Positions 11,447-60,377 of a stretch of 61,056 nt of DNA are shown piece by piece. Below the pieces are notes generated by a model that saw only the letters and a program-made list of their open reading frames with translations, was not told the DNA's origin and did no database searches. This DNA is from a bacterium (GTDB taxonomy: Bacteria; Desulfobacterota; DSWW01). The position numbers were made by a program, and so were the translations under genes. The first letter of the stretch is position 1. The number at the start of each line of letters is the position of its first letter. The stretch lies in contig WFRX01000097.1 in the NCBI GenBank assembly GCA_015486285.1, positions 1 through 61,056 of the forward strand. The letters run 5' to 3'.

Positions 11447-12823
11447 TCAGCGGCCTTCGGATTCGAGGCGTCTTCTCTTGATCTTCTCCACGAGGGTGGT
11501 TCGATTCAGACGCAGAAGATCCGCCGCCTTATTCTTGTTGCCGTGTGTGCGCTGGAGGGCCTGCGTGATCAACTCATTCTCGAATCGAGATACCGCCGTC
11601 CGGAAACAAATCCCTTCCGAAGGCAGGGCCACCGTCGGCGGGGAGACATCCGGCCCCTGATCCATATACCGGTCCCGGATGTCATCGATTTCAATCATGC
11701 CCTCCCCCTTCAGGATCACGAGTCGCTCGATCAGGTTCTCGAGTTCCCGCACGTTCCCGGGCCACGAATAGCCTTTCAGGTAGTTCATTGCATCTTCCGA
11801 AAACCCGAGGATGTCCCCACGCAGCCGCTGATTGAAGCTCTTGAGGAAATGGTCGCAGAGCAGGGGGATGTCTTCGACACGCTCCCGCAAGGGAGGCAAG
11901 TGGATCTGGATGACGTTCAGGCGATAGTACAGGTCCATCCGGAATTTCTTCTCTTCGATCAGCTTGCGCAGATCCTGATGGGTGGCCGCGATCACCCGCA
12001 CATCCACCTGGAGGGTCTTGGTGCTTCCCACCGGCTCGAAGGCCTGCTCCTGGATGACACGCAGCAGCTTGGTCTGCAGATGAGGGCTCATGTCCCCGAT
12101 TTCGTCAAGGAAGATCGTCCCCTTGTCGGCCAGGGAAAAGCGTCCGGGCCGGGAATAGAGGGCCCCTGTAAATGCCCCTTTCACGTGGCCGAACAATTCG
12201 CTCTCGAGCAGATTCTCCGGAATCGACCCGCAGTTGACGGGAACGAGCGGTTTCGCCGCTCGGGGGCTGCCGTCATAAATGGCCCGGGCGACCAGCTCCT
12301 TGCCCGTGCCGCTCTCTCCGGTAATCAGCACCGTGGAGTCCGTCGGGGCCACTCGCTCGATCAGGGAATAGACCGTCTGCATCGCGGGAGAATCCCCAAC
12401 GAGGGCTGAACGCTTTCGCTTTTGTCCGGAACGGCTCAGGTACGAAGTCCGGGACTGTGTCACGGCGGAAGTGGCCAGCTCCAGAACCTCTTCATTGTCA
12501 AAGGGCTTGGTCATGAAATGGAAGGCCCCCTGCTTCATGGCCTCCACAGCCGTTGTAATCTCCCCGTATGCAGTGATCATGACGATGCTCATGCCGGGTT
12601 TTTTACCGCGCAATCTCCGAATCAGCTCCATTCCATCCATTCCCGGCATCTTCAAGTCGACAAAGGCCACGGAGAAGTCCTGCTCTTTGCAGGCCCGCAA
12701 CGCCTCGATCCCGGATCCGCAGGTGGTCACAAGGAAGCCCCTTGTTTCCAGCAGGCGACGTAAGGCCTTCTGCACCACCAGGTCATCATCAACGACCAGA
12801 ATTCTCCCGCCTTCCCTGTTCAT
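11447..12823 (-). CDS. sigma-54-dependent response regulator (NtrC/AtoC family)
   Basis: REC domain (ILVVDDD..FVDLKMPGMDG), AAA+ sigma-54 interaction domain (GESGTGKE, GAFTGA, ESELFGH) and a C-terminal Fis-type HTH. The ATG at 12823 is preceded by GGAGAGGAGAGG. Confidence 0.9.
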   Translation of the reverse strand: MNREGGRILVVDDDLVVQKALRRLLETRGFLVTTCGSGIEALRACKEQDFSVAFVDLKMPGMDGMELIRRLRGKKPGMSIVMITAYGEITTAVEAMKQGAFHFMTKPFDNEEVLELATSAVTQSRTSYLSRSGQKRKRSALVGDSPAMQTVYSLIERVAPTDSTVLITGESGTGKELVARAIYDGSPRAAKPLVPVNCGSIPENLLESELFGHVKGAFTGALYSRPGRFSLADKGTIFLDEIGDMSPHLQTKLLRVIQEQAFEPVGSTKTLQVDVRVIAATHQDLRKLIEEKKFRMDLYYRLNVIQIHLPPLRERVEDIPLLCDHFLKSFNQRLRGDILGFSEDAMNYLKGYSWPGNVRELENLIERLVILKGEGMIEIDDIRDRYMDQGPDVSPPTVALPSEGICFRTAVSRFENELITQALQRTHGNKNKAADLLRLNRTTLVEKIKRRRLESEGR

Positions 12824-20573: not shown

Positions 20574-20907
20574 AAACAGTCCATTCCTTCGTTACGAGCC
20601 GTCTCCCGGCCCAATGTGTCACGGGATCCCCACCTGCGCGGTATGACGATGCGTCCGAGGCTCGGGTCGACCCTCTTCCATCGGACTCCGCGCCTGCGCG
20701 GCATGACAGCATTTGCGGCACGTTGCGCGATGGCGGACATTGCGAGCGCAGCGAAGCAATCTCCCGGCGTATTGCGCCTTTCCCCATGGAGCCGGGGGAT
20801 TGCCGCGTCGCCTCCGGCTCCTCGCAATATCCGGAGGGTGCCGATAGACTCCCGGGAACCCATTGCCCGGCTGTTCCGGTCCCTTTGCCCGGCTCAACCA
20901 TCTCGCC
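20574..20907. repeat. mosaic of REP-like palindromic elements (two families) filling the nuoE-nuoF intergenic gap
   Basis: Family 'GTCAT.CCGCGCAGG..GGATCC' occurs at 20624-20647 and 20683-20707. Family 'GGACATTGC..GCAATCTCCCGG' occurs at 20735-20767 and, inverted, at 20794-20834. Confidence 0.75.
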
Positions 20908-21501
20908 CTAATCCCCGGATTCTTGTTTCTCTTGCTCGCGCTCCCTCTTTTCCGCAAGCTCGACGGCGAGCATAATCCCGTCCACGGTCGTGGGCGTCAT
21001 GTTTCCGTACACTTCCTCCCCCACAACCGCCACAGGGGCCATGGCGCAGCAACCCACACAGGCGACCCGGTCCAGGCTGTACAACCGGTCCTCGGTCACC
21101 TCCCCTTCGCTGATGCCCAGCTTCGTCTCCCATACATTGAGAATCGCGTTTCCGCCCTTGATGTGGCAGGCGGTTCCCATACACATCTTCACAGGATGTT
21201 TCCCCGGCGGGATCATGCGGAACTGATTGTAAAAAGAGGCGACACCAAAAACGGCGGCCGGGGAAATCTCTTTTGCCCGCGCCACTTCGATCATGGCCTC
21301 CCGGGGAAGGTATCCAAAGTGTCTCTGGACCTTCTGCAAAAGGGTAACCAGGCTGGTATTCCTCAAATCCGTAGATTCGAGAATCCCCCTCATCTCCTGC
21401 AGGACGTCCAACTCGTCTTCCACTGCTTGCGCCATAGCTTCCCCACTGATCTGCGAATCAACGAAACGGATTGAATTGTTCAGTATAGCATTTTTCGCCA
21501 C
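20908..21501 (-). CDS. NuoE-like thioredoxin-fold [2Fe-2S] subunit (HydC/HndA/HoxE type)
   Basis: CMGTACHIKG..(36)..CVGCCAMAP is the NuoE Cx4C..Cx3C pattern. The GTG start at 21501 has a GGGGGAGA SD; an alternative ATG lies at 21435. Confidence 0.9.
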   Translation of the reverse strand: MAKNAILNNSIRFVDSQISGEAMAQAVEDELDVLQEMRGILESTDLRNTSLVTLLQKVQRHFGYLPREAMIEVARAKEISPAAVFGVASFYNQFRMIPPGKHPVKMCMGTACHIKGGNAILNVWETKLGISEGEVTEDRLYSLDRVACVGCCAMAPVAVVGEEVYGNMTPTTVDGIMLAVELAEKREREQEKQESGD

Positions 21502-22088
21502 TGCTTTTCATCTCCCCCGTGACACTTTTCCCCTTGGTCCTTCTTCCCTTCACCCTTTCAGGAGGACCGGTGCTGGTTCCCGATTACCCCTGGCGCGGAC
21601 ACGGCAAGCGGGGCGAAGCAATCTCCCGGAACCGTGTAACACCGCAATCCCCGAAGGGGTCATTCCCCCAATCTTGAGACACGCAATGATGGGGAGGCAG
21701 GGCACGCCTCGGGGTTGGGAGATTGCTTCGATCGCCTCCGGCTCCTCGCAATGTCCGCCAACGGACAGCGGAACGCCCGCAAGCGACCATAGGAAGCGAT
21801 CCATTTCATAGGGACAGGGGAACATCCACAAACGGCCATACGCAGCGCCCCAGCACGTACGGACATTGCCAGCGAAGCAATGTCCGCCAACGGACAGGGG
21901 AACGTCCCAAGCGGCCATACACAGCGCTCCATTATGTACGGACATTGCGAGCGAAGCGAAGCAATCTCCCGGTCCATTGCGCCTTTCCCTTGACATAACC
22001 GGCGATTCTCCCTAGCTTATTAGGCTGTCCAGCGACCCCCTGAAAACGGGCTTCTCACACGCCTCCCGGCTAATTCACAGGATCGCAC
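21502..22088. repeat. REP-like element cluster with degenerate tandem units
   Basis: Palindromes occur at 21613-21629 (partial), 21717-21756, 21861-21885 (perfect GGACATTGC-cagcgaa-GCAATGTCC) and 21940-21972. Between them are three degenerate ~55-bp units (GGACAG.GGAAC.TCC..AA.CGGCCATAC.CAGCG). A solo arm resembling the hairpin family lies at 21569-21590 (GGTGCTGGTTCCCGATTACCCC). Confidence 0.7.
21990..22018 (+). promoter_or_regulatory. candidate sigma-70 promoter (TTGACA-17-TAGCTT) upstream of panE
   Basis: Perfect -35 hexamer ~95 nt upstream of the panE ATG; the -10 is weak. Pattern match only. Confidence 0.3.
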
Positions 22089-26911: not shown

Positions 26912-27019
26912 TTCGGTGCTGTTCCCGATTCCCTCTCCGATTTGCTTGGGCTCCGTCTCCCCCTCTCCCGACAAAGTCGCCCGGCACAAATCTCCGAGGG
27001 AATCGGGAACAGCACCGAA
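26912..27019. repeat. long-hairpin repeat, copy A (conserved ~50-nt core, 24-bp perfect outer stem)
   Basis: TTCGGTGCTGTTCCCGATTCCCTC ... GAGGGAATCGGGAACAGCACCGAA flank the core GATTTGCTTGGGCTCCGTCTCCCCCTCTCCCGACAAAGTCGCCCGGCACAAATC. See findings. Confidence 0.85.
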
Positions 27020-27053
27020 AAACGCCGCCTCTGTCCGGAAACCACAGCGACGC

Positions 27054-35391: not shown

Positions 35392-36849
35392 ATGAAGGTC
35401 TCGTGCAGGATCGCCGGCAGCTTCACAGGCAGCGGACCCGGCACGGGCGCAAAGGCGTCCGGCCCCGTCCCCACCCTCGCGAAGAAGATGCAACAGAGCC
35501 GGTTCCTCATCACGGGATGCTACCTCCTGCTCGGCGGCCTTGCGTACGGCATCGGTGCCGTGGAAGACAACATGGCAAGGGTCCTCTTTGCGATCGCCGT
35601 CATGCCGCTTTCGAGCCTCTTCTCGCTCTGGTTGATGCACAGGCTGCCGGGAGTTCAGTCAACCATCACCGCGGTCAACCTCGTGCTGGACACCCTGCTG
35701 ACCTCCTGGGTCATCTTCTGGACCGGCGGCACCCTGAGCCCCTGCCTCCCCTTCTATCTCACCACCGTAATGGCCGCCTCCTTCCGGTTCGGCCCCCGCG
35801 GCAGCCTGCTTTCCACCCTGCTCGCCGTCGCCTGCTATTGCGTGGTGGGCGCCCTGGGCCCGGATCCGCCGGCCACCCTTCACGCCGCAGCCGGCATGAC
35901 CCTGCGGATCGCCTTCCTGTTCGCGGCGGCGGGCTTCGGAATTCGCGCCCTCCACCAGAACCTCGAACGCTACCGGAAGGAGAAGGCCCTGAACCGCAGC
36001 CTGGAAGAGACCAACCAGGCCCTCGCCGCCGCCTACCAGGACCTCCGGACGACGCAGGACCAGCTCCTCCACGCAGAAAAGCTCGCCTCCCTCGGACAAC
36101 TCGTCGCCGGAGTGGCCCATGAAATCAACAACCCCATCAGCTTTGTGTACGGAAATCTCGTTCATCTCAAGACATACGTACAGCGACTGGAATCGCTGCT
36201 CTCCCTTGACGACAACCTGCCCCTGTCCGGCCCGGTTCTCGAACGGCGGGAGGCGATCAAGAAGGCCATCGATTACGATTACCTGATGGAAGACCTCCAC
36301 GGCGCTCTCGGGTCGTGCTTCAAGGGGGCGAAGCGGATCCAGGGGATTGTCGGCTCGCTGCTCGACTTCTGCCGTATGCGAAAGCCCGCGTTCCACCCCG
36401 TGGACCTCCGGGAGACCATCGAAAACGCCCTGTGCATACTGGGAAGCAAGATCCCGGCAGACGTTCAGGTCCGACGCGAATACACGGCGGGGGACTGTAC
36501 GATCCGGGGCGATGCGAACCAGCTCAGCCAGCTCTTCTTGAATCTCCTCGCAAACGCCCTGGACGCACTCGAGGGCCGGGGCACCATACGGGTAAGGGCC
36601 TTCAGCCGGCGGGACGGGGACAACCGGGAGAGGGTATTCGTAGAGGTGGAAGACAACGGGCCGGGCATCCCCCCTGAGGATCGAGCCCGGATCTTCGAGC
36701 CCTTCTTCACGACCAAGGACGTGGGAAGGGGCACCGGCCTGGGCCTGTCGATCGCTTACAGCATCGCCAAACGGCACAAAGGCGAACTGGCCGTGCAGAC
36801 CGGCTCCCCCCGGGGCGCTCTCTTTCGCGTCTCGCTGCCCGCGGCCTGA
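35392..36849 (+). CDS. membrane-bound sensor histidine kinase
   Basis: Multiple N-terminal TM helices, H-box ([12 protein letters not shown]) and N/G boxes ([25 protein letters not shown]). The ATG at 35392 is preceded by GGAGGAAGGG; an alternative ATG lies at 35488. Confidence 0.85.
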
Positions 36850-36995
36850 GAAAAAAAAGGAAAAGAAAAGAAAAAAGGGGACAGACCTATTTTTCTCCCT
36901 TTCGCGTCTCGCTGCCCGCGGCCTGGAAAAAAGCAAAAGGGAAAAAAGGAGAAAAAAGGGAGAAAAAAGAAAAATAGGTCCGTCCCCTTTTTTCC
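36818..36995. repeat. duplicated gene-3'-end + polypurine tracts + 20-bp inverted repeat
   Basis: 31-nt direct repeat CTC(T/C)CTTTCGCGTCTCGCTGCCCGCGGCCTG at 36818-36848 (end of the kinase CDS) and 36895-36925. Each copy is followed by an A/G-only tract. IR GGGGACAGACCTATTTTTCT (36877-36896) pairs with AGAAAAATAGGTCCGTCCCC (36968-36987) and is followed by T6. Confidence 0.8.
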
Positions 36996-37974: not shown

Positions 37975-38069
37975 TGCTGCCTCCTATCGCGCTTCGGTTT
38001 GTGCAGGGCGACTTTGTAGGGAGAGGGGGAGACGGAGCCCAAACAAACCGGGGCGCGACAGGGCAGCAC
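37975..38069. repeat. long-hairpin repeat, copy D (inverted orientation)
   Basis: The reverse complement carries the core TTTGTTTGGGCTCCGTCTCCCCCTCTCCCTACAAAGTCGCCCTGCACAAA. The outer stem segments pair as GTGCTGCC/GGCAGCAC, TCGCGC/GCGCGA and GGTTTG/CAAACC. It lies between the convergent PHP and gpmI stops. Confidence 0.8.
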
Positions 38070-38071
38070 AT

Positions 38072-39673
38072 TCAACCGCCCGCAAGGGCGCGGTAGGCCT
38101 TTTCGATCCTGTCCCAGTTGTGCTCCCGGTCGAGCGCCCAGTATCGGCCCATGACCGTAACCACCTCCCCCAACCCGAGCTCCCGGGCCTTCTGCTCCAC
38201 CTTTTCCACATAGATCGCCCCGCTCGCAGGCTGCTCCCCCCTTCTGCCCAGCAGGCTGTGGATGCAGACCCTGCGCACCCCTTCCCGCTTCGCCATCTCC
38301 ATCAGGGCGAAGAGATGATCCAGCGAACCGTGGGAGCTGTAGAACGAGACGATCCCGAGCAGGTGGAGCGTCTTTCCTCCTTGCCGGCAGGGCGCCATGG
38401 CCCAGCGGAAGGCCTCGTTTTCGTAGAAAGCGCCCGTGCGGATCGCCTCATCGATGCGCACCCGGTCTGAAGGGACCACCCGCCCCGCCCCGAGGTGCAG
38501 ATGCCCGGCCTCTGAATTCCCCACGCTCCCGGCGGGCATCCCGACGGCCCTGCCCGCGGCCTCCAGCAAGGTCCACGGGCAGGCCGCCATGAGCCGGTCC
38601 ATGACAGGCGTCGGCGTACGGGCGATCAGATTCCCCTCCTCATCCGCCCGGTGGCCCCAGCCGTCGAGAATCAGCAAGAGCACCCGGGGCGGTCCGGCAA
38701 ACAGGGCCCCCGCATCGATTCCCTTGCCCGCCCCCTTCAGCAGGCTGCTGCCCGTCATCTCCTCCGGCACGGGAATGCCGAAGATCTCCAGGACCGTCGG
38801 GGCCACATCCACGAGCGAGCCCCCCGACCGGAGCGCGAGCGGCCTCGCCGACCCGCCGTCCGGCGGGATGACGAGGAAGGGCACCGGGCTGTCGCTGTGC
38901 CCCGTGTCGATGGTCCCATCCGGGTACAGTCTCTTTTCCACGGTCCCGTGATCCGCCGTAATCAAGGTCACGTAGCCCTGCCTCTTCGCCTCTTCGACCA
39001 CGATTCCCGTCTGGGCATCCACCACGCGGATCGCCGTTTCCACGGCCGCCTCGTTCTCCATGTGTCCCACCACGTCCACGTTGGCAAAATTGCCCAGGAC
39101 GAAGGGGCAGGTCCCTTCTCGCAGCCTCGCCGTGATGGCATCGGCCACCTCGGAAGCGCTCATCTCCGGAAGCTCATCGAAGTTTTGAACCTCCCGGCTG
39201 GATGGAATGAACACCCTTTCCTCCAGGGGAAAGGGGTCCGCAGCCTTTCCGTTGAGGAAGTAGGAAACGTGAATCGCCTTTTCCGACTCCACGACCCGTA
39301 CCTGGCGTATTCCCTGCCTGCTCAACACTTCCCCAAGGGTGTTCTTGATCTTCCCGATCGGGGGAAACCCCACCCGAACGGGCAGGCCCGCCTCGTATTC
39401 GATCATGGTGGCCATGCGGGCCGGACGGCCGGAAGCCCTTTCAAAGTGGCTGAAATCAGGCTCCACGAGCGCCTTCGTCAGTTGCACTTCCCTTTCACCG
39501 CGGATATTGTAGAAGATTACGCACTCCCCTTCCCCGATCGCGCCGAGGAGTCCTCCCCGGTCATCGACGCTGACGATCGGCTCGAAAAGCTCGTCTTCCT
39601 GGCCTTCTGCGTACGCCTGTCGCACAGCCTCGGCCATGCTCGCCACGTCCCTGCCCATTCGGACTTTTCTCAT
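38072..39673 (-). CDS. gpmI: 2,3-bisphosphoglycerate-independent phosphoglycerate mutase, circularly permuted domain order
   Basis: All iPGM hallmarks are present but in permuted order. C-terminal-type motifs (FYNIRGEREVQ, NFANVDVVGHMEN, ITADHG, EEMTG) come first. The canonical N-terminus (LLILDGWG, TPVMD, GNSEAGHLHLGAGR, SSHGSLDHL, GRYWALDREHNWDR) occupies residues ~330-533. Confidence 0.85.
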   Translation of the reverse strand: MRKVRMGRDVASMAEAVRQAYAEGQEDELFEPIVSVDDRGGLLGAIGEGECVIFYNIRGEREVQLTKALVEPDFSHFERASGRPARMATMIEYEAGLPVRVGFPPIGKIKNTLGEVLSRQGIRQVRVVESEKAIHVSYFLNGKAADPFPLEERVFIPSSREVQNFDELPEMSASEVADAITARLREGTCPFVLGNFANVDVVGHMENEAAVETAIRVVDAQTGIVVEEAKRQGYVTLITADHGTVEKRLYPDGTIDTGHSDSPVPFLVIPPDGGSARPLALRSGGSLVDVAPTVLEIFGIPVPEEMTGSSLLKGAGKGIDAGALFAGPPRVLLLILDGWGHRADEEGNLIARTPTPVMDRLMAACPWTLLEAAGRAVGMPAGSVGNSEAGHLHLGAGRVVPSDRVRIDEAIRTGAFYENEAFRWAMAPCRQGGKTLHLLGIVSFYSSHGSLDHLFALMEMAKREGVRRVCIHSLLGRRGEQPASGAIYVEKVEQKARELGLGEVVTVMGRYWALDREHNWDRIEKAYRALAGG

Positions 39674-39760
39674 GATTCAGAATTCCCTTTCAGTCGTTTT
39701 GTAATCCGTTGCATGGTGCGCTGAAACCGAGCCTGGGCATGTATCGGGAAGGTCCGGGAT

Positions 39761-39865
39761 TGCAGTGCTGTCCCTGGTTCCCTCTCCGATTTGCTTGGGC
39801 TCCGTCTCCCCCTCCCTCGAAGTCGCCCTGCACAAATCTCCGAGGAAACCAGGGACAGCACTGCA
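39761..39865. repeat. long-hairpin repeat, copy B
   Basis: TGCAGTGCTGTCCCTGGTTCCCTC ... GAGGAAACCAGGGACAGCACTGCA (one C-A mismatch, which is G-U on the opposite strand) flank the conserved core. It lies between the TPR lipoprotein stop and the gpmI start. Confidence 0.85.
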
Positions 39866-39982
39866 CGATTCGAACTCTGCCATGGAAGCATAGCGACGGC
39901 TTCGCCTCCTCGCAATGTCCCCCACTGCACCGAAAGATTCCCCCCTGCCCTTTCACCTTCCCCCTTCGACCCGATCCGTGTG

Positions 39983-48131: not shown

Positions 48132-48231
48132 GGTGCCCTTGTCTGTCACCTCCAGGTTTGCTTGGGCTCCGTCTCTCCCTCCCCCTACAAAGTCGCCCGG
48201 CACAAACCTGGAGGTGACAGACAAGGGCACC
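48132..48231. repeat. long-hairpin repeat, copy C (29-bp perfect outer stem)
   Basis: GGTGCCCTTGTCTGTCACCTCCAGGTTTG ... CAAACCTGGAGGTGACAGACAAGGGCACC flank CTTGGGCTCCGTCTCTCCCTCCCCCTACAAAGTCGCCCGGCA. It lies in the tolB-pal intergenic region. Confidence 0.85.
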
Positions 48232-48271
48232 AGAGGCCCCTCTCCCTTCCACCCCCCCCGTTGAGTTCGAG

Positions 48272-48315
48272 GGATCATGCAATTTGCTTGGGCTCCGTCG
48301 CCCTCGCCCACGCGT
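48272..48315. repeat. truncated half-copy (E) of the long-hairpin repeat
   Basis: AATTTGCTTGGGCTCCGTCGCCCTCGCCC retains only the left half of the core. It abuts the tolB stop codon. Confidence 0.6.
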
Positions 48316-59583: not shown

Positions 59584-59704
59584 AGTGCCGGGATAGGAGA
59601 TCTGAAGGGGAAAGGTCCACGCCCATCCTCCCATGAAGCCGGCGAGGAAAGCCAACCTCGCGGAACAGGGGACGCATCCCTTTTTCTCGCCCCGGCGCTG
59701 TTCC

Positions 59705-59877
59705 GGACATTGCCAGGAGCCGCAGGCGACGCGGCAATCGCCCGGCACCCTTGATTCCCTCTCCCTCAGGGAGAGGGCCAGGGTGAGGGTGACGTACCTC
59801 CGCGGTCATTCACTCCCCGGAAACCCTTTGGCTCCCGCTCGGTGCTGGGAGATTGCCACGCCTTCGGCTCGCAATTT
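59705..59877. repeat. cluster of REP-like palindromes
   Basis: GGACATTGCCAGGAGCCGCAGGCGACGCGGCAATCGCCCGG at 59705-59745. CCCTCTCCCTCAGGGAGAGGG palindrome plus CCAGGGTGAGGGTGA at 59757-59791, which reads as the PLPEGEG-type peptide on the reverse strand. GGGAGATTGCCACGCCTTCGGCTCGCAATTTTC at 59846-59877. Confidence 0.7.
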
Positions 59878-60017: not shown

Positions 60018-60377
60018 GGGGGCGAAACGGATTCGACGGGGATCGTCGGGGTTACGGCTGCATACCGAGGTCCCACCTTGCTCGTAAAACAGGTGGAAAC
60101 AACATAATCGCCAATGATTATGACTTTGCCATGGCCGCTTAATTGACGGTCATCGTCCTCCCGGCTCATTCTTGCGGGGCCGGATAGGGCGTCGATTAGC
60201 AAGATAGTCTCCACCTCTTCGCCTGCGGGAGGCTGGAGGCGAAATCTTTCGTAGGCTGGCTCCCCGGACGCCCTGCCTGTCGGGCAGCCGGAGAGCGAGA
60301 TCAATCGACAGGCTAAGTATGTAGACGCCGTAGGTCTGGGTTTCCGGACGTGGGTTCGACTCCCACCGCCTCCACCA
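60018..60377 (+). ncRNA. ssrA: tmRNA (SsrA), tag peptide ANDYDFAMAA
   Basis: The 5' end GGGGGCGAAACGGATTCGACGGGG pairs with the 3' end ..GGGTTCGACTCCCACCGCCTCCACCA (tRNA-like domain with T-arm and CCA). The resume codon GCC at 60110 opens GCC AAT GAT TAT GAC TTT GCC ATG GCC GCT TAA (60110-60142). Confidence 0.92.

Follow-up and report, generated by a model that had tools for sequence, protein, structure and literature searches.

The 61,056-nt stretch of bacterial DNA analysed here (contig WFRX01000097.1; in its whole length, the window) carries on its minus strand an open reading frame (ORF) of 533 amino acids (aa), whose product is, by its alignment to solved structures, a single-chain circular permutation of a GpmI-type cofactor-independent phosphoglycerate mutase (iPGM). 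The reversed order of the two halves had been proposed in an initial annotation made from the sequence alone, and was borne out by Pfam, TIGR01307 and alignments to entries of the Protein Data Bank (PDB); all motif strings quoted in support of it were present in the translation. That the gene encodes a real, selected and permuted enzyme of the iPGM family is close to certain. The protein is probably an intact, selectively maintained and naturally permuted member of the GpmI/GpmM family, which would form a phosphoserine intermediate and interconvert 3-phosphoglycerate and 2-phosphoglycerate (3PG/2PG).

Chain order and domain boundaries

The chain of canonical iPGMs runs through a first phosphatase segment (phosphatase-1), hinge 1, the transferase domain, hinge 2 and a second phosphatase segment (phosphatase-2). 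This two-domain, two-hinge architecture has been described in PMC5382265. The ORF product, which starts with an ATG codon, did not follow the collinear order phosphatase-1, transferase, phosphatase-2. When the PDB was searched with phmmer, residues 331-531 were aligned without gaps to residues 6-206 of the Bacillus stearothermophilus enzyme (1EJJ) with an independent E-value (i-E) of 1.5e-53, and residues 14-312 to residues 217-509 of the same protein (i-E 1.6e-55). Because the two halves align separately at E ~1e-53 and 1e-55, their inversion lies far beyond chance. In Pfam, iPGM_N (PF06415, 178 bits) and Metalloenzyme (PF01676, 174 bits) were both split into two stretches and showed inverted domain coordinates, with iPGM_N profile positions 1-125 on residues 407-531 and Metalloenzyme positions 62-250 on residues 103-300. 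The profile for bacterial iPGM, TIGR01307, was matched with 469.2 bits summed over two stretches (cutoff 330.65), residues 9-312 covering profile positions 209-504; here, too, the order was inverted rather than running normally from N- to C-terminus.

The cut point corresponds to canonical positions ~207-216 and lies in a surface loop of the transferase domain. An 18-residue linker, KGAGKGIDAGALFAGPPR (residues 313-330, nt 38684-38737), close to where it had initially been placed (about nt 38690-38740), now connects the old termini. Read from its new N-terminus, the chain passes through the C-terminal part of the transferase domain, hinge 2, phosphatase-2, the linker, phosphatase-1 and hinge 1, and ends with the N-terminal transferase part. 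The phosphatase domain has become the contiguous insert and the transferase domain the split host, with both interdomain hinges kept, and the initial placement of the new termini inside the transferase domain was confirmed by the Pfam, TIGR01307 and PDB alignments. The gene and its parts are as follows (all on the minus strand):

38072..39673: complete coding sequence (CDS) of the circularly permuted iPGM-family protein, 533 aa plus stop (ORF, TIGR01307, PDB alignment, identical protein P0001 on an ENA scaffold)
39674..39695: translation start region with a Shine-Dalgarno-like AAGGGA ~10 nt 5' of the ATG (sequence reading)
39383..39673: residues 1-97, new N-terminus and C-terminal part of the transferase domain (canonical ~207-300), with R58 and R61 (= Arg261, Arg264; 1EJJ alignment)
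Residues ~97-103: hinge 2, just upstream of the phosphatase-2 part
38738..39367: residues 103-312, second part of the alkaline-phosphatase-like phosphatase domain (canonical ~306-509), with K132, D200, H204, D241, H242 and H259 (Metalloenzyme 62-250, residue map)
38684..38737: residues 313-330, linker that connects the former C- and N-termini (the stretch left uncovered by the two PDB alignments)
38465..38683: residues 331-403, first part of the phosphatase domain (canonical 6-78), with D337 (= Asp12), the nucleophile S387 (= Ser62, nt 38513-38515) and H391 (= His66; 1EJJ alignment)
38075..38455: residues 407-533, N-terminal part of the transferase domain (canonical 82-206) and new C-terminus, with H448, R478, R510 and R516 (iPGM_N 1-125)
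38234..38248: clade-specific loop G476-R477-R478-G479-E480 in place of canonical D-G-R-D-V (clade comparison)

The assigned ATG is supported because the N-terminal segment MRKV.(I/M)G(K/R)D..SMAEAV is conserved among the closest homologues. Scans for promoters and terminators gave nothing above the shuffled expectation.

The gene offers a clean natural permutation of an enzyme of central metabolism, in which insert and host domains have been swapped while hinges and active site are kept, and could aid work on domain insertion, on the order of folding and on the dynamics of closure in iPGM. As a test case for domain closure it is of smaller value than initially suggested, because the hinges are unchanged and closure mechanics are tested less sharply.

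Distribution, subtypes and origin of the permuted proteins

An identical protein (P0001) was called on an ENA metagenome scaffold (ERZ23495071 scaffold_34). The best 120 clusters from a search of 5.8 billion proteins were 55-85% identical to the window protein and collinear with it over 93-100% of its length, except for one 370-aa fragment; when each half was used separately in BLAST searches, all 120 proved to be permuted. At least 120 further clusters around a second protein, P0123, were also permuted. The same order and cut point are therefore common to at least 240 database clusters, from metagenome-assembled genomes (MAGs) of many phyla, among them Thermodesulfobacteriota, Chloroflexota and Planctomycetota, and the permutation is not unique to the window. 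When one genome per GTDB species was scanned, 46 loci with the gene were obtained, nearly all full-length and collinear, with at least ten phylum-level labels represented. The MAG labels comprised Thermodesulfobacteriota, Syntrophales, Smithella, Anaerolineae, Dehalococcoidia, Planctomycetales, Phycisphaerae, Gemmatimonadota, WOR-3, Aminicenantes, Stahlbacteria, Cloacimonadota, Chitinispirillaceae and Eubacteriales. The closest loci (78-80% identity, uncultured Thermodesulfobacteriota) had the same PHP-domain and histidine-kinase neighbours, with synteny conserved in the three orthologous loci L002-L004. The ratio of nonsynonymous to synonymous substitution rates (dN/dS) was 0.13-0.20 against five orthologues, showing purifying selection.

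The window stems from a short-read metagenome scaffold and the gene is bracketed by repeat copies, both of which would suit an artefact in which a tandem-duplicated normal gpmI was collapsed or mis-joined to give an apparent ORF with the C-terminal half in front of the N-terminal half. Such a mis-assembly or collapsed duplication, which the initial annotation had named as an alternative, is excluded, because the same architecture recurs in 120 + 120 independent clusters and 46 genome loci. Order, cut point and frame agree across these 240 clusters (from JGI, ENA, NCBI and Logan assemblies) and the 46 loci, which include contigs of 0.5-2.75 Mb; the sequences have diverged at the codon level under the low dN/dS given above, linker and termini are conserved among close relatives, and the bracketing repeats lie outside the CDS. 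The probability left to an artefact is negligible.

In an exhaustive phmmer search over 1.84 billion cluster representatives, 1864 clusters reached E<=1e-30. Of the 150 best, 13 were permuted (11 near full length), 135 canonical and 2 partial, and the cut point was common to all permuted proteins found. For comparison, permuted sequences were rearranged to the canonical order, aligned with canonical ones and used to calculate neighbour-joining (NJ) trees with two distance corrections. A single clade with a bootstrap support of 98-99% contained 38 of the 41 permuted sequences and was marked by the shared derived motifs SSHG and RGERE; support for all permuted sequences as one group was 0-3%, distance trees being unable to separate single from multiple origins of the permutation. 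The motifs distinguish the following groups:

Canonical group: DGRD, ADHGN, GHTG
P0123-type: DGRS, ADHGN, SSHG, RGERE; at least 120 clusters, mainly Anaerolineae/Chloroflexota
Window-type: GRRGE, ADHGT, SSHG, RGERE

P0123-type proteins share with the window protein the permutation, the cut point, both derived motifs and membership in the same clade, whereas their identity to it is 44%, they keep D151, G152, R153 and N447 (in DGRS and ADHGN), and their genes lie in an operon with HAD, apgM and PRK genes. Judged by its GRRGE loop and its ADHGT motif, the window subtype is the most derived permuted form.

Three orphan proteins (P0127, P0148 and P0157) have the same cut point and domain order as the window protein and fall outside the main permuted clade. 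They carry the canonical residue at 12 of 12 clade-diagnostic positions and are ~50% identical to canonical iPGMs, compared with ~38-41% to the window protein. The 119 nearest relatives of P0148 were all canonical (Geobacter- and Clostridia-like), and its gene was intact on two separately assembled contigs (L048 4041-5585; L049 2341-3885). The orphans would have arisen by separate permutation events at this loop, or would be early branches that evolve slowly, and they may point to recurrent permutation at one loop.

The main clade probably goes back to a canonical gpmI gene that was duplicated in tandem or fused and then lost its outer ends. The tandem-duplicated intermediate envisaged in the initial annotation was found in none of the best 150 of the 1864 clusters (50%-identity representatives). 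Six proteins of >600 aa were considered as duplication intermediates and rejected, since they contained a single copy of each half with terminal fusions. In the explanation we regard as best, the permuted clade is large and old. The series from canonical motifs through DGRS to GRRGE, together with the orphan forms, provides material for reconstructing how a permutation became fixed and what followed.

Active site, genomic context and function

The residues that are catalytic or substrate-binding in the B. stearothermophilus (Bst) enzyme (1EJJ, 1O98) were transferred to the window protein through the 1EJJ alignment. At the nucleophile and metal site, Bst D12, S62, D403, H407, D444, H445 and H462 correspond to D337, S387, D200, H204, D241, H242 and H259, and H66 corresponds to H391. 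Among the substrate contacts, H123, R153, R185, R191, R261, R264 and K336 correspond to H448, R478, R510, R516, R58, R61 and K132. The only change among the mapped residues is D154, replaced by G479, so that 7 of 8 substrate contacts are identical; Asp154 is a substrate contact in the Bst enzyme, and literature searches gave nothing usable on its role. The initial view that all recognisable metal and catalytic motifs are retained is thus correct for the metal ligands, the serine and these seven contacts, and incorrect for the D151-D154 loop, which now reads G-R-R-G. In an alignment of 81 sequences of the window subfamily, reaching down to 55% identity, the mapped conserved residues were invariant, as were R477, E480 and the group R58, E60, R61 and E62. 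The nucleophile, the six other metal ligands and the basic substrate residues were largely kept down to ~38% identity. The composition of the metal site agrees with that of Caenorhabditis elegans iPGM in PMC5382265.

A comparison of the main permuted clade with canonical iPGMs identified 93 columns conserved at >=85% in both groups, 81 of them with the same residue and 12 with a different one (A24L, L54M, L116I, V122S, D151G, G152R, D154G, D263E, T334S, M404V, G409E and N447T). Glu480, which is invariant and stands one position after the lost Asp154, could replace it.

A structure predicted with AlphaFold2 (AF2), using the 81-sequence alignment as input, had a mean predicted local distance difference test score (pLDDT) of 90 and a predicted template modelling score (pTM) of 0.86. 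The linker was the least confident stretch (pLDDT ~70-76, with a short helix at residues 321-324), and its length and sequence vary across the family. The new termini flank an inter-helix loop in the model, between helix 520-531 at the C-terminus and helix 13-22 near the N-terminus. Foldseek returned 22 significant chains from the PDB, all of them canonical iPGMs, with ~314 columns aligned and template modelling (TM) scores of 0.46-0.49, which is the behaviour expected of a sequential aligner on a circular permutant. No solved structure with the permuted order was present among the PDB matches of phmmer and Foldseek. The initial assessment of the enzyme as probably functional is supported by the catalytic residues invariant across the 81 members, the low dN/dS and the confident AF2 model.

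Like canonical GpmI/GpmM (TIGR01307; PDB 1EJJ, 1O98, 2IFY, 4MY4 and 5KGL), the protein combines PF01676 with PF06415, retains both hinges, the serine nucleophile, the binuclear metal ligands and the Arg/Lys/His substrate contacts, and has a predicted fold that matches only these structures, to which each half is 32-36% identical. Unlike them, it is permuted at ~207-216 with the old termini fused by the linker, its phosphatase rather than its transferase domain is contiguous, and four motifs have changed (DGRD to GRRGE, GVHS to SSHG, RxDRA to RGERE and ADHGN to ADHGT). Other mutases of the alkaline-phosphatase superfamily, namely apgM (TIGR00306/NF003160) and phosphopentomutase (DeoB), carry a cap domain in the core and showed a weak likeness, limited to the metal-binding core. 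Both were rejected as assignments: the archaeal-type iPGM profile (apgM, TIGR00306) scored 27.1 bits against a cutoff of 320, and the phosphopentomutase profile (NF009049) 31.6 bits against 254.

Because every phosphate-, carboxylate- and metal-binding residue is retained and Glu480 is invariant, a phosphoglycerate-type substrate and canonical chemistry can be argued for, and on this residue pattern the activity is likely that of a 3PG/2PG mutase. Briefly, the two domains would close over the substrate, after which Ser387 at the binuclear metal site (D337, S387, D241 and H242; D200, H204 and H259) would take up the phosphate of 3-phosphoglycerate. The glycerate would then be reoriented by R58, R61, K132, H448, R478, R510 and R516, and the phosphate returned to O2.

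In the ENA scaffold, a TPR gene and lon adjoin the gene on one side, a PHP-domain gene and a histidine-kinase gene on the other. ORF clustering of 42 window-type loci revealed synteny at the lineage level only (by inspection, IspDF, Pcm, CarD-like, macro-domain and DHH genes). A second phosphoglycerate mutase (PGM) was not found in the window by tblastn with both halves or by a motif scan for cofactor-dependent PGM (dPGM). At one window-type locus (L052), a 208-aa His_Phos_1 gene (11590-12216) overlaps the stop codon of the permuted iPGM gene by 4 nt; its best match was TIGR03848 (putative phosphomutases; 189 bits, just under the cutoff), and genes for ATP-citrate lyase and aconitase lie near it. 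This pairing did not recur in the 42 clustered loci. On three near-complete Anaerolineae-like genome contigs (L053 8505-15276; L054 7243-12033; L055 6467-13251), the P0123-type gene belongs to a conserved cluster of same-strand genes, together with one or more HAD hydrolases, an archaeal-type iPGM and one or two ~400-aa proteins of the PRK/uridine-kinase family. The apgM-type neighbour exceeded the NF003160 cutoff (562 versus 468 bits), and sugar-acid genes as well as a regulator (RpiR or LacI) are located nearby. The cluster was absent from all 46+ window-type loci.

Several observations weigh against a plain assignment as the glycolytic PGM. The stricter NCBIfam equivalog NF003897 was missed (370.5 bits, cutoff 862), the D151-D154 loop is remodelled, and besides Asp154 eleven canonical-invariant positions are altered, including V122S adjoining His123 and N447T (listed as adjoining His445). 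No glycolysis genes were detected near the window-type gene in the 42 clustered loci or in four Pfam-annotated neighbourhoods, and neither the PDB nor the literature searched yielded a permuted member that has been characterised. Judged from its neighbours, the P0123-type subtype is not the sole PGM candidate in its genome, an apgM-type iPGM adjoining it. Archaeal-type iPGMs have also been reported in Syntrophus, a member of the Syntrophales (PMC2964296). Remodelling of the substrate loop, the uninformative context and the apgM gene beside the sister subtype weaken a simple label of housekeeping PGM, a role the enzyme may nevertheless have.

These observations would agree with a neofunctionalised paralogue that applies the phosphoserine chemistry to another phosphorylated acid or sugar acid, or acts as a phosphatase, while an apgM-type enzyme or a dPGM carries glycolysis. 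We consider this unlikely, if well short of negligible. It would account for the twelve canonical-invariant positions that are fixed otherwise and cluster around the substrate pocket (D151G, G152R, D154G, V122S, D263E and N447T), for the sharply separated subtype signatures, for the recurrent HAD/permuted iPGM/apgM/PRK operon of the sister subtype on three independent genome contigs, and for the overlapping His_Phos_1 gene downstream at one locus, and it fits the Syntrophus report. However, all Arg, Lys and His residues that hold phosphate and carboxylate in canonical iPGM are invariant, the invariant Glu480 adjoins the lost Asp154 and could substitute for it, the TIGR01307 cutoff is exceeded, and the apgM/PRK operon is missing from the window-type loci, where the gene occurs singly among housekeeping genes, like many genes of glycolysis. 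In a broader and likewise doubtful form, the main clade would be a distinct enzyme family retuned to another phospho-acid, which in Anaerolineae would act together with HAD phosphatases, PRK-like kinases and a mutase of the apgM type in a pathway not yet described, and the same loop would have been permuted at least twice independently; iPGM would then be a natural case of convergent permutation, in the main clade and the P0148-like orphans. The remodelled substrate loop might also be taken to indicate an inactive relic, a rearranged gpmI kept as a pseudoenzyme for a structural or regulatory role. This is very improbable: the nucleophile, six metal ligands and basic substrate residues are invariant at identities as low as 55%, and low dN/dS alone would not keep exactly the catalytic set.

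No description of a permuted iPGM, of which the initial annotation was also unaware, was found in full-text literature searches (iPGM, independent phosphoglycerate mutase, alkaline phosphatase superfamily), and the form is unmentioned in a 2010 survey of bacterial PGMs and a 2025 review on how glycolysis evolved. In the literature searched, the permuted topology has no description; the sequences themselves are already public and form a large clade of a well-known enzyme, and the finding does not by itself answer an open question. Permuted proteins are uniformly named iPGM by JGI, whereas NCBI names (P0031, P0048, P0093, P0456, P0481 and P0502) are inconsistent, for example 'alkaline phosphatase family protein', 'sulfatase-like hydrolase/transferase' or 'phosphoglycerate mutase (2,3-diphosphoglycerate-independent)'. 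The clade extends across numerous lineages of uncultured anaerobes, and metabolic reconstructions from such MAGs may falsely show the PGM step as missing or, should the clade have diverged, assign PGM wrongly. iPGM is a drug target in nematodes and trypanosomatids.

Repeats and other features of the window

A palindromic intergenic repeat resembling repetitive extragenic palindromic (REP) sequences or miniature inverted-repeat transposable elements (MITEs), with the core TTTGCTTGGGCTCCGTCTC, was present in five copies in the 61 kb, with 0 expected by chance. The copies are located at:

26912-27052
37996-38061 (inverted)
39761-39898
48132-48208
48258-48313

The permuted gene lies between two oppositely oriented copies, and the one upstream of the gene forms a hairpin of ~24 bp (minimum free energy z = -6.8). 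The element appears to be specific to this genome, because it was absent from 54 other loci examined, including the orthologous L002-L004.

Two 38-nt direct repeats (36818-36932), 92% identical and 77 nt apart, lie between the histidine-kinase and PHP-domain genes. A cluster of short direct repeats at 20734-21989 has units of 31-51 nt that are 65-94% identical and spaced by 77-862 nt, and an inverted partner of these repeats is located at 59702-59749, near the end of the window that carries a full-length transfer-messenger RNA (tmRNA) gene (60018-60377, plus strand; RF00023, 216 bits).

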